Shown: positions 53,419 through 63,477, counted from the first letter of the stretch. The stretch: DNA of 64,000 nt from Patescibacteria group bacterium (GCA_043817315.1 JBDRGY010000004.1:64797-128796), one strand, 5' to 3'. Program-made: numbers and translations. The notes: generated by a model from the letters alone, not told the origin.

Positions 53419-55149
53419 ATGATAAAATTTAAAGGTATGAGTAAAATTTGGAAGATAAAACCAAAAATTTCCAAAGAGTCTCAAAATAATTTCCCGGAAA
53501 TTAATCCGGTTGTTTTACAATTGCTTTATAACCGTGGCTTATCAAATCAAGAAGCCATTGACGAATTCTTAAATCCCGACTACAGCCAAGATGTTCATGA
53601 TCCCTTTTTGTTTCAAGATATGCAAAAGGCTGTAGATCGTATTGTCAAAGCCGTCAGCTCGGAAAAGAAAATAGTTGTCCACGGAGACTATGATGCTGAT
53701 GGGGTTTCTGCTTCGGCAGTATTGGTCGAGGTCTTGCGAAAACTGGGCATCAAGCAGGAGAACTTATACATTTATATTCCTCACCGTAACACCGAAGGAT
53801 ATGGATTGTCAGAAGAAACCGTAAATAACTTAGTCAAATCAAAAACAGATTTAATAATTACAGCTGATTGCGGGATCAGCAATGTCAATGAAGTAAATCT
53901 GGCTCAGCAGAAAGGGATTGACGTGATTATTACCGATCATCATACAGTACCGTCCGAGCTGCCGAAATCTTTTGCCATTATCAACCCTAAAGTAAAATCG
54001 GATAAATATCCCTTTGCAGAACTGAGTGGAGTAGGAGTGGCCTTCAAATTGGTTCAAGCTCTACGGCGTCATCAAAAAATCGAAGGAGGATTTGAAAAAT
54101 GGCTGCTGGATTTGGTGGCCCTGGGCACAGTAGCTGATTCAGTTCCTCTTTTGGGGGAGAATCGGACTTTAGTTAAATACGGCTTAATAGTCTTGAACAA
54201 GACCAGGCGGCTAGGATTGCGTCGCCTCTATAGTGTAGCCAGAATTGAACTAGGCGAGATAAATGCCCGTTCCATCAGTTTCCAGATTGCCCCCCGTCTA
54301 AATGCTGCCGGTCGGCTCGAACATGCCAATACTGCTTATCAGCTTCTGATCTCCGAAGAAAAACAAGCCACCGAAGATCTGGCCAATCAGCTGAACAATA
54401 CCAATTTTCAAAGACAGCAGATAACAGATAGTTTAAAGAAAGAAGCCTTTAATCAGATAGGGGACAAGGTGGAAGATCTGGTCATATTTGTTCACGGCCA
54501 GGATCAGAGGTGGCAACCGGGTATTATCGGCTTAATCGCCGGTAGAGTCTCTGACCAGTATTTTCGTCCCGCTTTTGTAATCTGTCAGCAGGACAATCTA
54601 TTTATTGGATCGGGGCGTTCCATTGAGCAGTTGGATATCATGGAAGTATTGGCAGATTGCAGGCAGTATCTTCAAAAGTTTGGCGGGCATGCTCAGGCTT
54701 GTGGTTTTACCCTGGAAGGAGAAGCTAACCTGGAGGGGTTTAAAAAAATGGCTACTGAAATTATCAATCAGAAGCTGCAGGGACAGGATCTGCGTCCCCA
54801 GATAGAAATTGAATCGGCCATCCGTTTATCCGATATTGACTGGGACCTTTTCGAGGAATTAGATAATTTTTCCCCCTTTGGTGAAGGTAATCGTCAACCG
54901 ATATTTCTAACCAAACAAGTTAAGCTAGACCAGATGGAAAAAGTGGGGGCCGACAAGCGACATTTGAGATTGGCCCTGTCTCAGGGTAGCAAAAAGTTCC
55001 ACAAGACTATCGGTTTTGGGATGGGGGACTGGGCTGACAAATTGAAACTGGGTGATACCGTTGACGTTGTTTATACGGTTGATGTAAATGAATGGAACGG
55101 CAATCGAGAGCTTCAACTCAAATTAATAGACATAAAACCGAATGGCTAA
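53419..55149 (+). CDS. recJ: single-stranded-DNA-specific exonuclease RecJ
   Basis: 576 aa. It has the DHH motifs VVHGDYDADGVSASAV and ITDHH, followed by a DHHA1-like C-terminus. Confidence 0.8.
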   Translation: MIKFKGMSKIWKIKPKISKESQNNFPEINPVVLQLLYNRGLSNQEAIDEFLNPDYSQDVHDPFLFQDMQKAVDRIVKAVSSEKKIVVHGDYDADGVSASAVLVEVLRKLGIKQENLYIYIPHRNTEGYGLSEETVNNLVKSKTDLIITADCGISNVNEVNLAQQKGIDVIITDHHTVPSELPKSFAIINPKVKSDKYPFAELSGVGVAFKLVQALRRHQKIEGGFEKWLLDLVALGTVADSVPLLGENRTLVKYGLIVLNKTRRLGLRRLYSVARIELGEINARSISFQIAPRLNAAGRLEHANTAYQLLISEEKQATEDLANQLNNTNFQRQQITDSLKKEAFNQIGDKVEDLVIFVHGQDQRWQPGIIGLIAGRVSDQYFRPAFVICQQDNLFIGSGRSIEQLDIMEVLADCRQYLQKFGGHAQACGFTLEGEANLEGFKKMATEIINQKLQGQDLRPQIEIESAIRLSDIDWDLFEELDNFSPFGEGNRQPIFLTKQVKLDQMEKVGADKRHLRLALSQGSKKFHKTIGFGMGDWADKLKLGDTVDVVYTVDVNEWNGNRELQLKLIDIKPNG

Positions 55150-56632
55150 AAAAATCAGACCCAGTCTAATGTATCTATTTGTTTTTTTGACTGGGGCAGT
55201 CATTATGGCGATTGAGTTAGCTGCTTCGCGGATTTTGGCGCCCTATTTTGGAAGTTCGATTTTTGTGTGGGGCAATATTATCGGAGTTGTTATGATTGCT
55301 CTGTCACTGGGTTACTATATCGGTGGTAAACTGGTCGACCGGCAACCCAGTTTGGCCCTATTAATGTACGGAGTACTGCTGGCTGGGATATTGATTGCCT
55401 TCGTTCCTTATTTGACCAAACCTCTTTCGGAAAACATCTTACCGCAACAGGCTTTTAGTTTCCAAATTTTCCTGATATTAGGTTCCTTTCTGGCCATGTT
55501 CATTCTGTTTGCTATTCCCATTTTTATCCTGGGCATGGTTTCTCCTTTTGTTATTCGCTTATTAATTGACGATGTTAATAAATCAGGACAAGTAGCTGGG
55601 TCGGTTTATGCTTCCTCTACCGTCGGCAGTATTTTGGGCACTTTTCTAGCGGCCTATTGGATAATTCCTTTTGTGGGCAGTCGGGAGACTTTACTGATTT
55701 GTTCTTTTTTGTTGATCATAATTAGCGGTTTCGGCTTGATTAAAAAACCTTGGTTTTTTACCCTACTACTGATTCCTGTATTGATATATTTTCTCAGCTC
55801 ACAAGTGGCACTTTCCCGCGAAGAATACTTAATCTATGAAGAAGAATCCGCCTACAATCTTATCCAGGTAGTCAGAGATGGCCAAAGAATAAATCTGAAA
55901 TTCAATGAAGGATTTGGAATACAAACGATTTATATCCCGGGCCAACCGTTGGTGTCTTCTTATTACGACTATTATTCGATATTACCTTATCTGGTTGAAC
56001 AAAAACAAAAGGAAGTACTGATGATCGGAGTGGGCGGAGGAGCTATTCCTAATATGTATCTGAAACTGCTGGCAGAAGAATTTGATTTCAACATTGATGC
56101 CGTAGAGATTGACCAGGAGGTAATCAGTACCGCCCAAACCTATTTTGAATATCCTACTGACCAGATTAACACTATTATCAGCGACGGTCGGTTTTTCCTC
56201 CGTCAAACTGAAAAGAAATATGATATAATAATTGTTGATGCTTACGCTCAGAGTCTATATATTCCCTGGCATCTTACCACAGCAGAATTTTTCCAGAATA
56301 CCGCTTCCCACCTTAATCCTTCGGGACTACTAGCCATAAATGTCAATTCTGTAGATTACTCTGACAAAATCCTGCAATCAATCAGTCAAACTATCAGAAC
56401 GGTTTTTGAGAAGGTCTATATAGTGCCCATAAAGTTTTCGGCCAACTACATGATCGTGGCCGGCAACCAAACCCTAGATTTTAATAGTGATGGCATCGGC
56501 AACCCTGACATAAAGATGTACATGGAGGATGCCTGGCGCTATAATGAGTTGGTAGAGCAGCAGGGGAGTGGGCTTATCCTTACCGACAATAAAGCTCCAA
56601 TCGAATTTTATACCGAGGCTAGCTTTTTATAA
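55142..56632 (+). CDS. membrane-domain-fused spermidine-synthase-like aminopropyl/methyl-transferase
   Basis: 496 aa. It has about 7 N-terminal TM helices and a C-terminal domain with the SAM/dcSAM-binding layout VLMIGVGGGAIP...DAVEIDQEV...IIVDAY. Confidence 0.6.
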   Translation: MAKKIRPSLMYLFVFLTGAVIMAIELAASRILAPYFGSSIFVWGNIIGVVMIALSLGYYIGGKLVDRQPSLALLMYGVLLAGILIAFVPYLTKPLSENILPQQAFSFQIFLILGSFLAMFILFAIPIFILGMVSPFVIRLLIDDVNKSGQVAGSVYASSTVGSILGTFLAAYWIIPFVGSRETLLICSFLLIIISGFGLIKKPWFFTLLLIPVLIYFLSSQVALSREEYLIYEEESAYNLIQVVRDGQRINLKFNEGFGIQTIYIPGQPLVSSYYDYYSILPYLVEQKQKEVLMIGVGGGAIPNMYLKLLAEEFDFNIDAVEIDQEVISTAQTYFEYPTDQINTIISDGRFFLRQTEKKYDIIIVDAYAQSLYIPWHLTTAEFFQNTASHLNPSGLLAINVNSVDYSDKILQSISQTIRTVFEKVYIVPIKFSANYMIVAGNQTLDFNSDGIGNPDIKMYMEDAWRYNELVEQQGSGLILTDNKAPIEFYTEASFL

Positions 56633-56648
56633 ACTAAATTAAGTAATT

Positions 56649-57083
56649 ATGAAAAACAGCAAAATCAAAATTTTCACTGACGGTGGATCCAGAGGCAACC
56701 CAGGACCTGCAGCTGTTGGAGTGGTATTTAAAGATCTGCAAGATAAAACTATAAATGAATTTTCCGACTTTATCGGGGAGACTACCAATGGTCAGGCAGA
56801 ATATCAGGCCATCATCTTGGGATTAAAGAAAGCTAAAAGCCTAAAGTATAAGATAGTAGAGTTATTTGCGGACAGTCAGTTTATAATAGAGCAACTAAAT
56901 GGTAATTATAAGATAAAAGAGGCGGGAATTGTTCCACTTTTCATTCAAGCCTGGAATTTGCACCTGGATTTTGATGAAATTAAGTTTATTTTCATTCCAC
57001 GGGAACAAAACCAGGAAGCGGATAAACTGGTGAATATTGTACTTAATAGCCGCCAGCGAGTAAAAAAGATACCCGGACTCTAA
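56649..57083 (+). CDS. RNase H (type 1) family protein
   Basis: It has IFTDGGSRGNPGPAAVGVV and TNGQAEYQAIILGL. The catalytic DEDD arrangement looks plausible. Confidence 0.7.
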   Translation: MKNSKIKIFTDGGSRGNPGPAAVGVVFKDLQDKTINEFSDFIGETTNGQAEYQAIILGLKKAKSLKYKIVELFADSQFIIEQLNGNYKIKEAGIVPLFIQAWNLHLDFDEIKFIFIPREQNQEADKLVNIVLNSRQRVKKIPGL

Positions 57084-57116
57084 ACTTTTTCGGAAAATTG
57101 TCCCCATTAAATTTGG

Positions 57117-57148
57117 CTAAAATTAGCGAAAATATCGCTAATTTTAAG
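57117..57148 (+). promoter_or_regulatory. Near-perfect 32-nt palindrome (ctaaaattagcgaaaatatcgctaattttaag)
   Basis: It is an inverted repeat, ttagcga-N6-tcgctaa, with extended arms. It is followed by a T-rich stretch. It could be the rnhA terminator or an operator for the downstream aldolase-like gene. Confidence 0.35.
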
Positions 57149-57245
57149 TTTGTCGTAAATTAGTCCCTATTTGTGAGCAGCATATTAGGGAAAAATGATA
57201 GCCATAGTTAGTTTTAGCAGCAGTTCTTTTACAAAGGGGTCTTCC

Positions 57246-57896
57246 ATGAGTGAGAAGTTTAGGGGAACCAGTTTCTCCGAGTGGACCTACGTGCCGGGAG
57301 AAATCAGCAACGGCTATTACAGTCAACTGGCCGAGCTAGCAGTTTTGGGCCGTTTCTTGATCGGAATATTGCCCATTCCGCCAGGGGATATTGCCAATGC
57401 CGGTAATCTCAGCTTTCGCACTGAAAAGGGCTGTGTGATTACCCGGTCAGGCTGTAGTATCAAGCATCTGGATCCTGAAGATCTGGTAGAGGTGATAGGC
57501 TGGGATGAGCCGGCCTGGAAACCGACTTGCCGCAGCCCAGCACCCAACGAACCGTCTTCTGAGACCGGTGCTCATCTGGCCATCTACAAAGCCAGACCAG
57601 AGGCAAACGTAATCGTCCATCTGCACAGTCAAGAGATGGTAGCTTGGGCTGTGACTATCGGGGCAGCGATGACCCAGCAAGAATTTCCCTATGGCACGCT
57701 GGAGTTTGTCCGCGAGATAATCAGAGTGCTGAAGCAGCACGATATTGTCTGCCTCTGCGGACCAGAACACATCGGTTTCTTTGCCCTAGGGAGAGACTTC
57801 AAGCAGGTCAAACAAGCCATCGAGCAAGCGCTGGCCAAGATAGCGGAGTCTCGTTCTCACCTCGGATCGGTTGCGACACCCCCATGTCGTTCCTAA
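57246..57896 (+). CDS. class II aldolase/adducin-family protein
   Basis: It aligns by eye to FucA/MtnB-type proteins: ANAGNLSFR, PSSETGAHLAIYKARPEANVIVHLHS (compare PSSEW..H...Y..RPDANAVVHNHA), and GPEHIGFFALG. The frame is open from 57195. Nearly all third-codon positions in this gene are G or C, so it is GC-rich. Confidence 0.7.
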   Translation: MSEKFRGTSFSEWTYVPGEISNGYYSQLAELAVLGRFLIGILPIPPGDIANAGNLSFRTEKGCVITRSGCSIKHLDPEDLVEVIGWDEPAWKPTCRSPAPNEPSSETGAHLAIYKARPEANVIVHLHSQEMVAWAVTIGAAMTQQEFPYGTLEFVREIIRVLKQHDIVCLCGPEHIGFFALGRDFKQVKQAIEQALAKIAESRSHLGSVATPPCRS

Positions 57897-57973
57897 ACCG
57901 CAAAAGACGGAAGACCCCACCTTCCGTCACTAATTGACAAATTTCAATATTTTTGTAAAATTAGGTTAAACCT

Positions 57974-59839
57974 ATGATCGAAAGAATGGTAATGAATAGT
58001 GAGAGCCTCCAGGAGAAACTGCCGGATGTTTACAGAGAGTTTTTTTCTAAGTCAGAAGTTGTCTGTTCTACGTCTGGAAATTTTTACTGGGTAGGTGATC
58101 ACGCTGTAACTTATGGAGGGCTTAGTATCGTCCAAAAACTACCGCTTAGGGCCCGGGTAGGACTGGAGCCAACATCCGATAACAAAATAGTTTTCGGTGA
58201 TTGGCTTTTTTTAGTTCCTTCCAAGGGTATTTTTGAAAAAAAGGATATTGGCAGAACCATAGAAAGTAAAATATCCAAATTACTAAAACAGGAGATCGCC
58301 AGTAAAATTGGACAGGATAATTATACAGGTTTTAAAATCCATTGTTTGGTAGAGATACCAACTGAATGCGGCCTTCACTCATCAGGGGCTATTGCCTCCT
58401 CCATTGCTTTGGCAATATTTATAAAATTTGGCTTGGCCCGGGAAGAAGAAATTGCTCAATGGAAAAACATCAATTCCCGCCAACTGGCTTCCGATAAAAA
58501 GAATAAATTTGACGCGATTTTCCGTCTGGCCTGGAAGATAGAATCAGTTTTCCACGCTGATGCCTCTTCAGGACACGGCCCTTTTTCTTCACTATTGGAT
58601 TCTACTTATCCGGTAGTCTATTTTACTGAACCCAGATCGGGTGATTATGATGAGCATCCCTGGACTAGAATGCCCTCTAATCTAAAGGGAAATTATGACC
58701 TATTAGACGATATGCAGTACTGGGGTTATCGCATGAATGACATATTTGATCTAAAAAAGCTGGATTCCTGGCCCATTGAATTTGGCCTGATTTACAGCGG
58801 TGTCAGAAATAACACTTCAGCCATCATCCGATCCATGAGTGATCTTAAGGGTCGTCTGGAGGACATTTCTTCTAACATGAAGAATTTATTGGAAGAAAAT
58901 GCGGATCTTTCCAAAGTAAAGCCGATTCTTTATGACATGGTAGTTAAACAGGGGGGTTACGGCTATTGGAAAAGATGGGTGGAATCGCTGTCAATAATTT
59001 CTTCCAAAACCCTGATTTCTTTTATGGAACTTTTCAAGCAGGGTTCCACTGACCGTGTCTTAAAGAGCTTATTTGATTCTTTAAACCAGTATCATGAAAT
59101 GCTGCATTTATTTGAAGCCTCCAAGCCGTTTCTAGATAATTTATGCAATTCCCTGAGAAATTTCGGCCAGGAATATCTCGGTGAAACTATTGCCGCTAAA
59201 CTGACGGGTGCTGGTCGCGGCGGTGACGTACTATTTGCGGCTCCCTATGGCACCTTTTACGATTCTATCAGCAAATTGATGGTCAATTTAAAGAAAGACT
59301 GCGGTGAGGATATTTGGTTGGATTATGCTTCTTGGCGCGATGGAATAGGCGGTGAAGGCGGAACCGTCGATCAAGACCTGTCTCATAAGATTTATTCTGA
59401 CTTTGTTTCCGAAGGATCAGTTTTTATCAGAATCTGGGAAAACAATCATACCCCCAAGACAGAGGTAATAACCCTTGAAGAATTTGATAACCTAAAAGAA
59501 GAAATTGATTTGTTGGTGGATAAATCTGCCAATAAAGTCTATGTCAAAGGGGAGCTCCTGACCTCCAAAGAAATCCATTCATCCAAAGTAACAGTAGAAG
59601 TATTGGATATATTGTTAAAAAATATTTCTAAACAAGTACCGGCTTCTCAATTTCCCCCATCATCATACATTGATCGTAACGAGATGCAGTCCAAAATCGT
59701 GTCGCCATTAATCAACGTTATTAAGAAAAAAATGAATAAAACTCTGCCCCTGGTTATTCGCGGCGGCTTGCGCAAGAATTTCTATATGAAGATTGACCCC
59801 GATGATCTGACTATTGCTTTAATCGATAAAAAGTTCTAA
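57974..59839 (+). CDS. large GHMP-kinase-family protein
   Basis: 621 aa. It has GHMP motif II (PTECGLHSSGAIASSIALA) and motif III (AKLTGAGRGGDVLFAAP). An insert of roughly 250 aa sits between the two motifs, and the C-terminus is long. Confidence 0.55.
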   Translation: MIERMVMNSESLQEKLPDVYREFFSKSEVVCSTSGNFYWVGDHAVTYGGLSIVQKLPLRARVGLEPTSDNKIVFGDWLFLVPSKGIFEKKDIGRTIESKISKLLKQEIASKIGQDNYTGFKIHCLVEIPTECGLHSSGAIASSIALAIFIKFGLAREEEIAQWKNINSRQLASDKKNKFDAIFRLAWKIESVFHADASSGHGPFSSLLDSTYPVVYFTEPRSGDYDEHPWTRMPSNLKGNYDLLDDMQYWGYRMNDIFDLKKLDSWPIEFGLIYSGVRNNTSAIIRSMSDLKGRLEDISSNMKNLLEENADLSKVKPILYDMVVKQGGYGYWKRWVESLSIISSKTLISFMELFKQGSTDRVLKSLFDSLNQYHEMLHLFEASKPFLDNLCNSLRNFGQEYLGETIAAKLTGAGRGGDVLFAAPYGTFYDSISKLMVNLKKDCGEDIWLDYASWRDGIGGEGGTVDQDLSHKIYSDFVSEGSVFIRIWENNHTPKTEVITLEEFDNLKEEIDLLVDKSANKVYVKGELLTSKEIHSSKVTVEVLDILLKNISKQVPASQFPPSSYIDRNEMQSKIVSPLINVIKKKMNKTLPLVIRGGLRKNFYMKIDPDDLTIALIDKKF

Positions 59840-59862
59840 TTTAATTAAACTTTTCCCATAGA

Positions 59863-59888
59863 AACGGGCCTTTAGGTCCGTTTTTTGA
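59863..59888 (+). terminator. Rho-independent terminator
   Basis: acgggcctttaggtccgttttttg. Confidence 0.55.
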
Positions 59889-59971
59889 TTTGTCTTTTCT
59901 TTTTTCCACTTCCGTCTCTATTTGTCCTTATGAGGTAAAGGGAGAATGAAACTGGTAATAATTTTTCTATT

Positions 59972-60199
59972 ATGATCAAACCAAAAGTCAATTTAGGTTC
60001 CAGGGTGTTGGTGGAGACAGTGGGGCGCCATTACCGTTTCCACATTGTTGATAGCCAGAAAGCTGATCCCACTAACGGTAAGATTTCCGGAGAATCGCCA
60101 ATAGGCCGTGCCCTGCTGGGCCACGGACGCCGGGAAAAGGTTAAAGTCAACCTGTTCAACGGGGAAACAGTTGATTATAAGATCGTCCGAGTCTATTAA
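59972..60199 (+). CDS. GreA/GreB C-terminal domain protein, stand-alone (second copy)
   Basis: 75 aa. KISGESPIGRALLGHGRREKVKV matches the GreA C-terminal consensus. Confidence 0.6.
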   Translation: MIKPKVNLGSRVLVETVGRHYRFHIVDSQKADPTNGKISGESPIGRALLGHGRREKVKVNLFNGETVDYKIVRVY

Positions 60200-60244
60200 A
60201 AACACCGGTTTTCAATATGTAGCTCTTTGAAAAAGGAGGTGAAA

Positions 60245-60367
60245 ATGCTGAATGGTTGTTTGCCGCAGTACTGCCAAAGGTGCGATTCCAGGCTATTGGG
60301 CATGGCTCCCTGTGTGGAGATCTGTCGCCATTGCCTAAAGAGGCTTAAAGATGCGGGGAGGTATTAA
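60245..60367 (+). CDS. small Cys-rich protein, 40 aa (sORF1)
   Basis: MLNGCLPQYCQRCDSRLLGMAPCVEICRHCLKRLKDAGRY has 8 Cys arranged as CxxxxCxxC...CxxxCxxC. A strong AAAGGAGGTG ribosome-binding site lies 5 nt upstream. Confidence 0.5.
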   Translation: MLNGCLPQYCQRCDSRLLGMAPCVEICRHCLKRLKDAGRY

Positions 60368-60368
60368 A

Positions 60369-60467
60369 ATGGCAGACCCAGGATTGGAAGAAATCGTGGA
60401 AGCGCTCTGGGAGACAGTGACCTTGCCGATCAAGATCATCTCCGAGATTCTTGGTGGCGATGAATAG
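60369..60467 (+). CDS. small acidic peptide, 32 aa (sORF2)
   Basis: MADPGLEEIVEALWETVTLPIKIISEILGGDE. It starts 1 nt after the sORF1 stop, which suggests translational coupling. Confidence 0.35.
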   Translation: MADPGLEEIVEALWETVTLPIKIISEILGGDE

Positions 60468-60540
60468 TGTTCGCCTAGTGACGTAGATTGGGGACATGGG
60501 CCCTACCCATGTTGGGATAGCCACTGGAAAGGAGTTGGAA

Positions 60541-60717
60541 ATGGATTTTACCTTTACTCCCCCGGAGAACTGTAAACAATGCATCAGATTTTCCAGGGCT
60601 GATGGTAATGTTTGCCCCGACCAGTACAGTTGTCCCCACGAAGGTACAGACCCTGGTCGCATCGTTAAGCGGCCCAAACCGCCACCCGATCATATGGGAA
60701 TCTTTCGGGATTATTAA
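60541..60717 (+). CDS. small Cys-containing protein, 58 aa (sORF3)
   Basis: A GGAAAGGAG ribosome-binding site lies upstream. The sequence is MDFTFTPPENCKQCIRFSRADGNVCPDQYSCPHEG.... It is followed by a terminator hairpin. Confidence 0.45.
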   Translation: MDFTFTPPENCKQCIRFSRADGNVCPDQYSCPHEGTDPGRIVKRPKPPPDHMGIFRDY

Positions 60718-60736
60718 ACTCTGTAACCTGTGGATG

Positions 60737-60780
60737 GAGCTGTTCATCTCAACCAGAACTGAACAGCTGGCTTCTTTTTG
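60737..60780 (+). terminator. terminator hairpin (copy 1 of a repeated element)
   Basis: ggagctgttca...tgaacagctggcttcttttt. Confidence 0.5.
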
Positions 60781-60821
60781 GGCCAAGTTACCGCTAAATC
60801 ACAATCCGAAAGGAGACGGAA

Positions 60822-61109
60822 ATGGAGAGCTACTCCGTAGAAGTCAGTCATGAATGGGGCATGTCTCACCCCTGGCACGGCGAGCCTGATCCTTGTCAGA
60901 TGTGCAGCAGGGGAGCCATGTTCGGTTGTGTCGGCTGCTACTACTATCATGAGAGGCGCGAGCCCAATCCCTACGAGCCCTGGCCCTATCCCAAGCCATA
61001 CGAACCTTATCCCAGGCCGTATGGCCCGGGTCCTTTTCCCGATTGGCGGGTGCCGCATTATGCCCAGCCGTTCGGGATGACGGTTTCCGCTGGAATGACC
61101 TGTTATTGA
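60822..61109 (+). CDS. small Cys- and Pro/Tyr-rich protein, 95 aa (sORF4)
   Basis: An AAAGGAGACGG ribosome-binding site lies upstream. It has CQMCSRGAMFGCVGC followed by the proline/tyrosine repeat PYEPWPYPKPYEPYPRPYGPGPFP. Confidence 0.45.
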   Translation: MESYSVEVSHEWGMSHPWHGEPDPCQMCSRGAMFGCVGCYYYHERREPNPYEPWPYPKPYEPYPRPYGPGPFPDWRVPHYAQPFGMTVSAGMTCY

Positions 61110-61119
61110 TCGATTTATA

Positions 61120-61165
61120 GAGCTGTTTACCTCAAGCAGAGCCAAACAGCTGGCTTGTAACTTGA
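61120..61165 (+). terminator. hairpin (copy 2 of the repeated element), a weaker terminator
   Basis: agagctgttta...ccaaacagctggcttgtaa. It is homologous to copy 1 with compensatory changes in the stem. Confidence 0.4.
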
Positions 61166-61207
61166 GCCAAGTCACTGACTAGCGGTAGTACTCTAAGGGA
61201 GGATAGA

Positions 61208-61507
61208 ATGGCTCCGACGGCTGCGGGCTTTGGTGGCCCGCTGGTTCCGGGAGGTCCGAGTGGTCCGATGAATCCTTATGATTCCGGACCGGTTTTCCAC
61301 CAGGCTGATCAGTTCGATTGTCACGTTGACGTTTTTGGAAACGTCGGTGTGATGGGACGCGATACGGCCTATATGGAGACTCCCAACTTCATCGTCGAGG
61401 ACACCTTCGTTGGCAGCTTCATGCAGGGTTCTCAGGCCTTCGATGACACCAGAGACCTGGAGATCATGGGTCCGGGTGCCAGACTTACCTCGATCACTCC
61501 GCTCTAG
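61208..61507 (+). CDS. small Gly/Pro-rich protein, 99 aa (sORF5)
   Basis: A TAAGGGAGG ribosome-binding site lies upstream. The N-terminus is MAPTAAGFGGPLVPGGPSGP and the C-terminal half is acidic. Confidence 0.45.
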   Translation: MAPTAAGFGGPLVPGGPSGPMNPYDSGPVFHQADQFDCHVDVFGNVGVMGRDTAYMETPNFIVEDTFVGSFMQGSQAFDDTRDLEIMGPGARLTSITPL

Positions 61508-61519
61508 GGGTTTTCCGGG

Positions 61520-61552
61520 GTTCGGGGCAGCATCAATATGCTGCCCCTATTT
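61520..61552 (+). terminator. Rho-independent terminator
   Basis: ggggcagcatcaatatgctgcccc followed by tatttttatt. Confidence 0.65.
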
Positions 61553-61555
61553 TTA

Positions 61556-61583
61556 TTGACAAAATCGGGTTTTCTGGTATGAT
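61556..61583 (+). promoter_or_regulatory. sigma70-like promoter for rnpB
   Basis: TTGACA, a 16-nt spacer, then TATGAT. The predicted transcription start is about 7 nt upstream of the RNase P P1 stem. Confidence 0.6.
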
Positions 61584-61590
61584 ACATTGT

Positions 61591-62071
61591 GCCCAAGTAG
61601 GCTGGATGATCGCCCCGCCCAATTCTTGAATCTTAACCTTTTAACGCTAGGATGCAGGAATTGGGCGGGGAGGAAAGTCCGAACACCCCCTGTATCGTAA
61701 GATGCGGGGAAGTAGACAGTCTGGAAATCAGACCGGGAGTAGATAAAGTTAGAAGTCCTATAGCCTTCTAGTTTTTTCAAAGCCCAGGGAAAGTGTCACA
61801 GAGACTACACTGCCGATGATCCCGTTCGGCTCTGCCGAGAGGGAAACAGGTGATGGTGAAAAGAGTGGGGTAAGAGCCCACAATCTGACCTGGTAACAGA
61901 TCAGAGCTGATAAACCCTGTCTGGTGCAAGACCGAATAGGCCCCTTGACCCAAAAGGGTCTACGGGGCGGGTAGGTCGCTTGACCCTTAAGTCCAGCTTG
62001 CTGGACCGGGGCTAGATAGATGATCGTCACCCCTTCGGGGTACAGAATTCGGCTTATAGGCCTGCTTGGGC
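61591..62071 (+). ncRNA. rnpB: RNase P RNA (bacterial type A)
   Basis: The P1 stem pairs gcccaagtaggc with gcctgcttgggc. The P4 5' strand is GGAGGAAAGTCCGAAC and the P4 3' strand is ACAGAATTCGGCTTATAG. The conserved GGTGAAAAGAGTGGGGTAAGAGCCCAC...GGTAACAGA block is present. Confidence 0.8.
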
Positions 62072-62085
62072 TAATTTGAGATTTT

Positions 62086-63477
62086 ATGAAAAAATCAGAA
62101 TTATTTTTCAGCGCCTTATTGGTGCCAGTTGATTACCTGATGATCGTACTGGCGGCTTTAGCTGCTTACGGTTTGCGGTTCGGATCTGCTTTTACCGACA
62201 TCATACCGGTAATCTACGAAATTCCCTTTCGGGAGTTTTTTAATATTGTGTTAATAGTAGCTGTTGGTTGGATAGCTATCTTCGCTCTGTCAGGCCTTTA
62301 CAACATGAGAGGCCAAAGAAAGAACTTCCAAGAGATTTCCAAGATATTTTTTGCTTGCTCGACAGCCATCATGGCGGTTATCATTTTTATATTTTTTCGA
62401 CGTGAGTTTTTTTCCTCTCGTTTTATAATTTTGTCTACCTGGTTTTTTAGCATCTTCTTTGTCAGCTTGGCTCACTTGATCATCAGGGCGATCCAGTCCG
62501 GATTTTATCGACGGGGGATCGGAATTCATCGACTTGTTGTGATCGGGCAAGATACTGTAGCTGAGGATTTTATCAAACAGATTTACCGCAAGCCCAATCT
62601 GGGACTAAAAATTGTGGAGCGCTATCCCCAGTTTGACGATAAGGTTAAGAATAGAATGAGGGAAATGGCCGAGGACGATAAAATCGATGAGGTTATTCTA
62701 GCTGATGCTAATATGGTCAAAGAAACAACTTTGGATTTGATCGACTTTTGTGATGAATACCATCTGGTCTTTAAATACGCCGCTGATCTTTTCGAAGCCC
62801 AAGCCACTAATCTGGAAGTGCAAACCATCGCCGGCATTCCCATAATTGAAATTAAGAAGACTTCTTTGGAGGGTTGGGGTAAGGTCAGCAAGAGAATGTT
62901 CGATATCTTCTTTTCGGTGATTATCGGATTGATCCTGTCACCAATTTTTCTTTTAATTGGAATAATCATCAAGATTGATTCCAAGGGTCCTATACTGGTA
63001 CAGCTACAGCGGGTCGGGAAGGGAGGTAAAGTGTTTACCCTTTATAAATTTCGCTCCATGATCAAAGATGCCCACTCTTTAAAAAAAGATTTATTGAGAT
63101 TTAACGAAAGAAGAGACGGGCCTTTATTTAAAATGAAACATGATCCTCGAATAACCAGGGTGGGGCGCTTTCTTCGCAAATCCAGTTTGGATGAATTTCC
63201 GCAACTGATCAATGTGATCAAGGGTCAGATGAGTATGGTGGGGCCACGTCCCCATGAGCCAGAAGAGGTGGCAAGATACGATAAGCATCATAAGAAGCTA
63301 CTGGCTATTAAACCGGGCTTGACCGGATTGGCCCAAGTATCAGGCCGTTCTGATTTAGGTTTCGAGCAAGAGGTAAAATTGGACACCTATTATATTGAAA
63401 ATTGGTCGGTCAGACTAGATCTGCAAATCATATTTAGAACTCCTTTTATATTAGTAATACCCAGGAAGGCTCCCTAA
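62086..63477 (+). CDS. polyprenyl-phosphate sugar phosphotransferase (bacterial sugar transferase, WbaP/CpsE-like)
   Basis: 463 aa. It has N-terminal TM helices and the C-terminal family block KRMFDI...KIDSKGPILVQLQRVGKGGKVFTLYKFRSM...DGPLFKMKHDPRITRVGRFLRKSSLDEFPQLINVIKGQMSMVGPRP. Confidence 0.85.
   Translation: MKKSELFFSALLVPVDYLMIVLAALAAYGLRFGSAFTDIIPVIYEIPFREFFNIVLIVAVGWIAIFALSGLYNMRGQRKNFQEISKIFFACSTAIMAVIIFIFFRREFFSSRFIILSTWFFSIFFVSLAHLIIRAIQSGFYRRGIGIHRLVVIGQDTVAEDFIKQIYRKPNLGLKIVERYPQFDDKVKNRMREMAEDDKIDEVILADANMVKETTLDLIDFCDEYHLVFKYAADLFEAQATNLEVQTIAGIPIIEIKKTSLEGWGKVSKRMFDIFFSVIIGLILSPIFLLIGIIIKIDSKGPILVQLQRVGKGGKVFTLYKFRSMIKDAHSLKKDLLRFNERRDGPLFKMKHDPRITRVGRFLRKSSLDEFPQLINVIKGQMSMVGPRPHEPEEVARYDKHHKKLLAIKPGLTGLAQVSGRSDLGFEQEVKLDTYYIENWSVRLDLQIIFRTPFILVIPRKAP

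Follow-up and report, generated by a model that had tools for sequence, protein, structure and literature searches.

A Patescibacteria protein family that may join a degenerate GHMP-kinase fold to an OmpR-type winged helix

The 64,000 nucleotides (nt) of DNA analysed here, from a Patescibacteria group bacterium (GCA_043817315.1 JBDRGY010000004.1:64797-128796; this whole stretch is called the window), contain a gene for a protein of 621 amino acids (aa), which lies next to a gene for a class II aldolase-like protein and is a 100% match to the NCBI entry 'MAG: hypothetical protein ABIB97_03390 [Patescibacteria group bacterium]' (MAG, metagenome-assembled genome). The 621-aa protein is proposed to be a one-component regulator that would sense through its GHMP fold and act through a C-terminal winged helix, a function that is given about an even chance from predicted structure and from conservation across the family. 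More tentatively, at somewhat short of even, its relatives may form a class of one-component transcription factors spread throughout Patescibacteria, in which a catalytically dead sensor resembling mevalonate kinase or galactokinase is combined with an OmpR-type winged helix; such a class was undescribed in the literature searched, and a fusion of a GHMP fold to a winged helix was not described there either.

In the proposed mechanism, the GHMP fold, probably derived from a mevalonate kinase or galactokinase paralogue of the candidate phyla radiation (CPR), would have been recruited as a small-molecule sensor. Its ligand would be a small molecule, perhaps with a nucleotide bound as well, and the ligand-dependent conformation would be relayed via a conserved acidic linker to the winged helix, whose binding to DNA would thereby be controlled, with regulation of transcription as the outcome. 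Gal3p and XOL-1, regulators that are likewise built on a GHMP fold, offer an analogous logic, except that here the DNA-binding domain would be part of the same chain.

The GHMP fold and the domain architecture

The two open reading frames (ORFs) from which the original prediction started were recovered as described and equal the NCBI calls of 216 aa and 621 aa (Table 1). In the larger protein, residues from about 28 to 450 are modelled as a two-lobed GHMP fold, nearest to mevalonate kinase and galactokinase. The direct matches to Pfam are weak (GHMP_kinases_N at 9.4e-5, GHMP_kinases_C at 1.4e-3), and a profile of the family reaches the mevalonate kinase (MVK) of M. jannaschii at 7e-16, for which hhalign gives a probability of 97.9%. 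The full-length AlphaFold2 (AF2) model, with a predicted local distance difference test (pLDDT) of 87.8 and a predicted template modelling score (pTM) of 0.86, is matched by Foldseek to galactokinases and mevalonate kinases at E values from 1.6e-16 to 1e-13 and target-normalised template modelling (TM) scores of 0.6-0.76. The GHMP-kinase-like identity suggested at first sight is thus confirmed, and so are its motifs by the profile searches.

Nevertheless, the protein is not assigned to any of the named kinases, with 61.1 bits against the cutoff of 163 for the mevalonate kinase model TIGR00549 and 16 bits against 227 for the galactokinase model TIGR00131. Neither the 621-aa protein nor its aldolase-like neighbour reaches any NCBIfam equivalog cutoff, and the two genes were not found to belong to a known annotated pathway. 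Mevalonate-pathway neighbours were absent from 25 loci of the family, and neither of the two window proteins was matched by the PADLOC defence models at E <= 0.1.

The spacing between motifs II and III is 282 aa, as compared with 170 in M. jannaschii MVK, which corresponds to about 110 extra residues distributed over at least three insertions and replaces the insert of about 250 aa supposed previously. The long C-terminus noted at the same time does exist and is in fact a separate domain, approximately residues 459-621, which is folded confidently in the AF2 model. The large size had also been taken to suggest a non-standard substrate; this view is not retained, since the extra length is largely that of the C-terminal winged-helix-like domain and not of an enlarged substrate pocket. 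The N-terminal extension (aa 1-27) carries the conserved N8, Y20 and F24 and is modelled as two helices, 9-15 and 17-26; the true start of the protein may be Met7. The linker (aa 451-510), with the motifs SW-DG and EQ, is predicted by AF2 as a beta-hairpin plus a helix. The family shares a fixed architecture of four parts: the two-helix extension, the GHMP fold, the acidic linker, and a basic C-terminal domain of predicted winged-helix topology.

Family breadth and distribution of conserved residues

A profile built from the last 163 residues was used to search for the family among 1.84 billion cluster representatives (50% identity) and gave 546 proteins at E <= 1e-3, 500 of them at E <= 1e-10. 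The domain is C-terminal in essentially all full-length matches (about 600 aa), and the shorter ones look like fragments. The family is large, uncharacterised and restricted to Patescibacteria, with at least 500 clusters.

For the counts of residues, 124 full-length members were aligned and mapped onto M. jannaschii MVK. The position of Lys8 (Lys13 in rat MVK) is occupied by Lys in two members and by Arg in another two, the window protein having N36 there; the position of Asp155 (Asp204 in rat MVK) is Asp in a single member and H201 in the window protein; that of Glu144 (Glu193 in rat MVK) is acidic in 67. Motif II is canonical in 10 members, and its loop is deleted in about 14%. Essentially no member of the family thus has the catalytic Lys/Arg of motif I or the catalytic Asp, and the phosphate-binding motif II is degenerate. 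The GHMP part has 3.1 highly conserved positions per 100 aa, the linker 13.3 and the C-terminal domain 12.6, and by mean charge the linker is acidic (net -2.1) and the GHMP part neutral on average. Since conservation is densest in the C-terminal part of the protein, purifying selection acts mainly on the C-terminal module, the classical kinase machinery not being maintained.

The loci L008 and L016 belong to one Berkelbacteria MAG (LacPavin_0920_SED5_MAG_37_11) that holds two paralogues, a long form of about 620 aa with 41% identity and a short form of about 515 aa with 30% identity; at least two subfamilies are therefore able to coexist in a genome.

The C-terminal domain as a putative winged helix

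The C-terminal domain is modelled by AF2 (pLDDT 85) as a small beta-sheet, a helix, a short helix, a long helix and a beta-hairpin, which is the order of elements in OmpR/PhoB. The four top matches of Foldseek in the PDB were BaeR, twice, AdeR on DNA and ToxR on DNA (probability 0.96-0.51, E 0.015-0.17), all the rest having probabilities of 0.2 or less. A profile of 13 sequences gave three matches in the PDB at E <= 10, all of them to DNA-binding domains of OmpR-family regulators (E 0.038-0.62). In hhalign, where the reference consisted of eight domains, those of E. coli CreB, ArcA, OmpR, PhoB, PhoP and CpxR plus two PDB fragments, 71 columns of the domain were aligned, in the register to be expected, with a probability of 83.3% (P 8.6e-6), and the controls (receiver domains, the reversed alignment and the GHMP part) gave 0.1-0.4%.

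In this register Y565 coincides with the conserved Trp of the OmpR family, and K574 lies where the recognition helix begins; both are invariant in 53 diverse members, and in the larger set they are kept in 123 (Y565) and in all (K574) of the 124 sequences. The domain is the most basic part of the protein, being net positive in 89% of members, with the helix-3 region positive in 98%. A fragment of DrrD, searched in six frames against about 390 kb (the window plus 26 loci), had a single match, the closest relative P0002 (loci L005/L006), at E 0.0074; the window protein was not matched in that search. Taken together, these results give moderate support to a winged helix of the OmpR/PhoB type. The binding of DNA by this domain is proposed, with its basic charge as indirect support.

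Evidence against a regulator and alternative functions

Several observations weigh against a catalytically dead sensor fused to a DNA-binding domain. In the window protein, motif II (PTECGLHSSGA; PISCGLGSSAS in M. jannaschii MVK, with the GHMP consensus P-x-G-S-G-L-G-S-S-A) and motif III (KLTGAGRGGD) are near canonical. Homoserine kinase, a member of the GHMP superfamily, lacks a catalytic base, so the loss of the Asp does not prove inactivity, and E127, which is located two residues before motif II and is present in all 124 sequences, could be a new catalytic residue. As to the C-terminal domain, Pfam Trans_reg_C (PF00486) missed the window protein and matched three of 13 members, at best with E 0.026, and neither this nor any other family was recurrent in Pfam scans of the 53 diverse members. 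A profile of these 53 sequences gave a weaker match in the PDB (1kgs, E 0.38) together with a spurious one to Centaurin at 0.046; the Foldseek E values quoted above were accompanied by TM scores of 0.3-0.5; the invariant P578 lies inside the putative recognition helix; and a DNA target or operator motif was not found by copy counts in the 64 kb or in the upstream regions of 23 loci.

Accordingly, an active but atypical small-molecule kinase, possibly a DNA-binding 'trigger enzyme', that would operate through transition-state stabilisation, in the manner of homoserine kinase, or with E127 as a base, has to be taken as a serious rival, although an unlikely one. Besides the near-canonical motifs of the window protein and the constant E127, it is favoured by G417, which is kept in 107 of the 124 members, and by neighbouring genes that would fit sugar activation: in locus L025 the family gene lies 5' of a galactokinase, and in four other loci it is found near a sugar-1-phosphate nucleotidyltransferase. 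However, the family-wide degeneration and deletions of motif II and the unconserved Lys and Asp positions speak against such an enzyme, as does the GHMP part being the least constrained region of the protein, and no pathway partner is conserved in the loci compared.

According to the other alternative, the C-terminal domain would serve RNA binding, protein-protein contacts or oligomerisation, in a Patescibacteria-specific housekeeping role outside transcription, which is considered quite improbable. Consistent with this role are the sub-threshold similarity to PF00486, the failure to find an operator motif, and the additional elements of the domain: seven residues inserted before helix 1, a Pro within helix 3 and one more strand at the C-terminus. 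Against it, the structural and profile matches above noise are all to OmpR-type DNA-binding domains, two of them solved on DNA, and the domain is consistently basic.

Transcription units

The 621-aa gene is predicted to be monocistronic, with its own promoter and terminator. Its sigma-70-type promoter-like site, the best one within 56900-60300, ends 12 nt before the ATG, and the leader predicted from this site is very short; the terminator has a fold energy of -15 kcal/mol. In most lineages (L003, L007, L009, L013-L019, L025 and the window at 57934-57973), a -10 box is situated 7-12 nt 5' of the ATG and a Shine-Dalgarno sequence is absent. With the -10 box so near the start codon, the relatives are likely to be stand-alone units with near-leaderless transcripts.

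Directly 3' of the aldolase stop codon lies a GC-rich hairpin, GACGGAAG-ACCCCAC-CTTCCGTC (-12.7 kcal/mol, z = -6.4), the stem of which is identical in L005 (z = -4.2) and which marks the 3' end of the aldolase unit. Further upstream, the near-perfect palindrome of 32 nt (57117-57148) described by the original prediction does exist as a repeat, with narrower limits: a perfect 12-bp stem with a 5-nt loop, 29 nt altogether, starting 35 nt 3' of the rnhA-like stop codon. Its RNA folds at -12.7 to -14 kcal/mol (z = -3.9), it was flagged by the terminator scan, and in L005 a hairpin of other sequence followed by UUUUU stands at the equivalent position. From its place after the rnhA stop and from this U-tailed counterpart, the repeat is probably the intrinsic terminator of rnhA, outside any module.

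The upstream regions of 23 loci, compared by eye, yielded promoter elements only. The sequence TAAAATTAG, which sits in both arms of the palindrome and over the -10 box of the 621-aa gene, was considered as an operator and rejected: these are all three of its exact copies in the 64 kb, as against 1.6 expected, a number reached in 19 of 100 shuffles, and copies with one mismatch are as numerous as expected by chance.

Gene neighbourhoods and the salvage module

The two genes had originally been proposed to form a module for the salvage of sugar phosphates or of deoxy- or thio-pentoses; in such a module, the large GHMP kinase would act on an unusual sugar, whose phosphate would then be split or dehydrated by the aldolase. 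The analysis of neighbourhoods largely refutes this module, which is now regarded as very improbable. The comparison covered 24 distinct loci of relatives from Berkelbacteria, Kerfeldbacteria, Curtissbacteria, Parcubacteria, WS2 and MAGs labelled Saccharibacteria. By tblastn, the aldolase adjoins the homologue of the 621-aa gene in one of the 24, namely L005/L006 (74% identity to the 621-aa protein), where the whole local order of RNase H, aldolase, GHMP-like gene and GreA-C is kept. Both folds are confirmed, the gene pair with its flanks is retained in this close relative, and both known copies of the aldolase adjoin this GHMP-like gene, all of which would be in favour of a module. However, the same synteny is shared by these two genomes, so the pairing is to be counted as a single evolutionary event; the aldolase is absent from the loci of the other 23 relatives; a GC-outlier aldolase has been inserted beside a gene of native composition; the predicted transcription units are separate; and the catalytic residues of the kinase are gone family-wide.

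No conserved partner gene was revealed by all-against-all clustering of the neighbouring ORFs in the 24 loci. The best neighbour cluster, and the sole one present in more than three loci, is a sugar-1-phosphate nucleotidyltransferase-like gene (LAAGKGTR motif) found in four loci at variable distance. It lies two to four genes 3' of members of the short subfamily (L014 7722-8462, L016 5641-6378, L017 4540-5265, L022 9461-10300). The galactokinase of L025 (7739-9022), a distant relative's locus, is a genuine one; it lies immediately 3' of the family gene, has a canonical motif II and scores 236 bits with TIGR00131 (cutoff 226.65); the arrangement, seen in one of the 24 loci, recalls the Gal3/Gal1 pair. 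Polysaccharide genes are nearby in L001. These neighbours are weak and inconsistent hints of sugar or envelope metabolism.

Thus the aldolase gene and the 621-aa gene are independent, chance neighbours, as follows from the adjacency in a single locus and the want of a conserved neighbour, from the restriction of the GC outlier status to the aldolase in both genomes, from the hairpin and the 11/12-consensus promoter between the genes together with the terminator of the 621-aa gene itself, and from the -10 boxes directly 5' of the ATG in relatives.

The class II aldolase gene

The aldolase-like identity proposed at the outset is borne out by Pfam Aldolase_II (PF00596; 7.4e-21, 75.3 bits against a cutoff of 22.2) and by pairwise alignment with E. 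coli FucA, in which N29, T43/G44, S71-S72-E73, H92, H94 and H155 are all kept; these residues cover all the phosphate-binding, catalytic (Glu) and zinc (three His) positions of FucA. The aldolase-like protein belongs to the same fold family as FucA, MtnB and AraD, and differs from FucA by a shorter segment between the HxH and the third His, by the missing C-terminal tail and by about 25 extra N-terminal residues. All of its 25 NCBIfam matches are far under the equivalog cutoffs, the best scores being 50 bits for PRK08660 (cutoff 203) and 46 bits for MtnB (cutoff 137). Judging from the sequence, it appears to be a divergent class II enzyme with intact catalytic residues, functional-looking and, as an orphan outside all named subfamilies, of minor interest.

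The GC-rich segment was earlier thought to embrace both genes. This holds for the aldolase gene, with GC 0.538 and 0.581 at third codon positions as compared with 0.416 +/- 0.039 in 34 other genes, and not for the 621-aa gene, whose GC of 0.404 is ordinary for the window. The aldolase of L005, the sole homologue among 5.8 billion proteins (61% identity), is a composition outlier as well (GC 0.508 against about 0.40). Being an outlier in both carrier genomes, the gene looks like a later insertion, and its high GC together with its occurrence in just two related genomes points to horizontal transfer. Probably, therefore, the gene was acquired horizontally, and the GC-rich segment entered, in an ancestor shared by two close Patescibacteria, between rnhA and the 621-aa gene.

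Similar short sequences flank this segment, TTTGTCGTAAATTAG at 57149-57163 and TTTTTGTAAAATTAG at 57950-57964. Their likeness could be the footprint of an insertion that duplicated part of the promoter of the downstream gene. The exact copies of TAAAATTAG all fall in these two intergenic regions, though their number is not above chance.

Other features of the window

The coordinates are collected in Table 1. The aldolase and 621-aa genes are on the + strand, as is every ORF of at least 190 aa in the 64 kb; so strong a strand bias is typical of small CPR genomes.

Table 1. Features of the window in the region of the 621-aa gene (positions counted from the first nucleotide of the window).
Feature	Position	Strand	Basis or remark
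recJ-like gene	53419-55149	+	
Spermidine-synthase-like membrane protein gene	55142-56632	+	
RNase H / RVT_3 (rnhA-like) gene	56649-57083	+	
Perfect inverted repeat, 12-bp stem, 5-nt loop	57118-57146 (29 nt)	+	Repeat search, RNA folding, terminator scan
Class II aldolase/adducin-family gene, 216 aa	57246-57896	+	Pfam PF00596; mechanical ORF from 57195
GC-rich hairpin	57906-57928	+	RNA folding; kept in L005
Promoter-like site TTGACA-16 nt-TAAAAT	57934-57961	+	11/12 consensus positions
621-aa gene	57974-59839	+	ORF call equal to NCBI call
N-terminal two-helix extension, aa 1-27 (modelled)	57974-58054	+	Alignments, AF2 model
GHMP-kinase-fold domain, aa 28-450 (modelled)	58055-59323	+	Foldseek, hhalign, NCBIfam score
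Acidic linker sub-domain, aa 451-510	59324-59503	+	Conservation, charge, AF2 secondary structure
OmpR/PhoB-like winged-helix domain (predicted), aa 511-621 plus stop codon	59504-59839	+	Foldseek, hhalign, PDB profile matches
Predicted intrinsic terminator of the 621-aa gene, 11-bp stem and T-run	59860-59885	+	Terminator scan
GreA C-terminal-domain-only gene, 75 aa	59972-60199		Pfam PF01272, 5.4e-16
GC-rich stretch	60200-61590		
RNase P RNA	61594-62072		Rfam RF00010, 184 bits
Sugar transferase gene	62086-63477	+	

The small GreA/GreB gene downstream consists of the C-terminal domain and is devoid of the N-terminal coiled coil; it also follows the GHMP-like gene in the close relative L005 (3420-3647). 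The RNase P RNA is of bacterial class A (E 5.5e-58), with a TTGACA...TATGAT-like promoter immediately upstream, and its 479 nt, as compared with the 367 positions of the model, imply that it carries insertions.

The GC-rich stretch between these two genes (GC 0.52), which had looked devoid of ORFs, contains five small ones on the + strand (40, 32, 58, 95 and 99 aa), all of them preceded by a strong Shine-Dalgarno sequence. Several of the encoded peptides are rich in Cys, and a Pro/Tyr-rich repeat (PYEPWPYPKPYEPYPRPYGPGPFP) is found in one. Three copies of the ribosome-binding block GAAAGGAG-N5-AAATGGA are present, as are two of a 40-nt hairpin (60734-60773 and 61117-61156, 83% identical). A large non-coding RNA was considered for this stretch and rejected, as Rfam was empty at E <= 1 and small ORFs with strong ribosome-binding sites were found instead; Pfam and Rfam gave zero matches for the stretch and its ORFs. 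It may be a horizontally acquired cassette of small proteins or peptides.

Significance and comparison with known systems

Patescibacteria, or CPR, account for much of bacterial diversity; their genomes are tiny, and in them few regulators can be recognised and many conserved families are functionally unassigned. Should the proposed function hold true, the family would represent a new way to build a bacterial one-component regulator, a single-polypeptide counterpart in bacteria of the yeast Gal3p switch, and a testable route into metabolite sensing by episymbionts. With at least 500 clusters in organisms poor in regulators, it could then have a major part in regulating host-dependent metabolism, such as the supply of sugar or isoprenoid precursors for the cell envelope. 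Some members are auto-annotated as 'mevalonate kinase' (a JGI name), which could inflate inferences of isoprenoid biosynthesis in CPR genomes.

As compared with mevalonate kinase and galactokinase (PF00288 plus PF08544), the two-lobed fold and motifs I, II and III are recognisable in the window protein, and mevalonate kinases are its best sequence matches. It differs from these kinases in the unconserved catalytic Lys/Arg and Asp, the approximately 110 extra residues, the 27-aa N-terminal extension and the C-terminal module of 160 aa. Moreover, the mevalonate genes of CPR are normally clustered (PMC6107057), and the 621-aa gene, unlike genuine CPR mevalonate kinases, lies outside such a cluster.

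With the DNA-binding domains of OmpR/PhoB regulators (BaeR, AdeR, ToxR, DrrD) the 621-aa protein is predicted to share the topology, with a basic helix 3, and it has the C-terminal placement usual in response regulators, whereas a receiver domain is absent and the GHMP fold would take its place as the input domain.

The closest functional analogy is given by GHMP-fold proteins that have become switches. XOL-1 of C. elegans is a GHMP-fold regulator rather than an enzyme, and Gal1p of K. lactis both phosphorylates and signals. In yeast, the GHMP-fold proteins Gal3p and Gal1p act as switches (PMC7556753, PMC11774755). In Gal3p and XOL-1, a GHMP fold without canonical catalytic features serves as a ligand-dependent switch of transcription, and the same use is proposed for the 621-aa protein, although a specific relationship of its family to either of them is not detectable beyond the superfamily. 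Gal3p acts indirectly, via the repressor Gal80p, and none of Gal3p, Gal1p and XOL-1 is known to have a fused DNA-binding domain, whereas in this bacterial family a winged-helix-like domain is fused to the putative sensor in one polypeptide.

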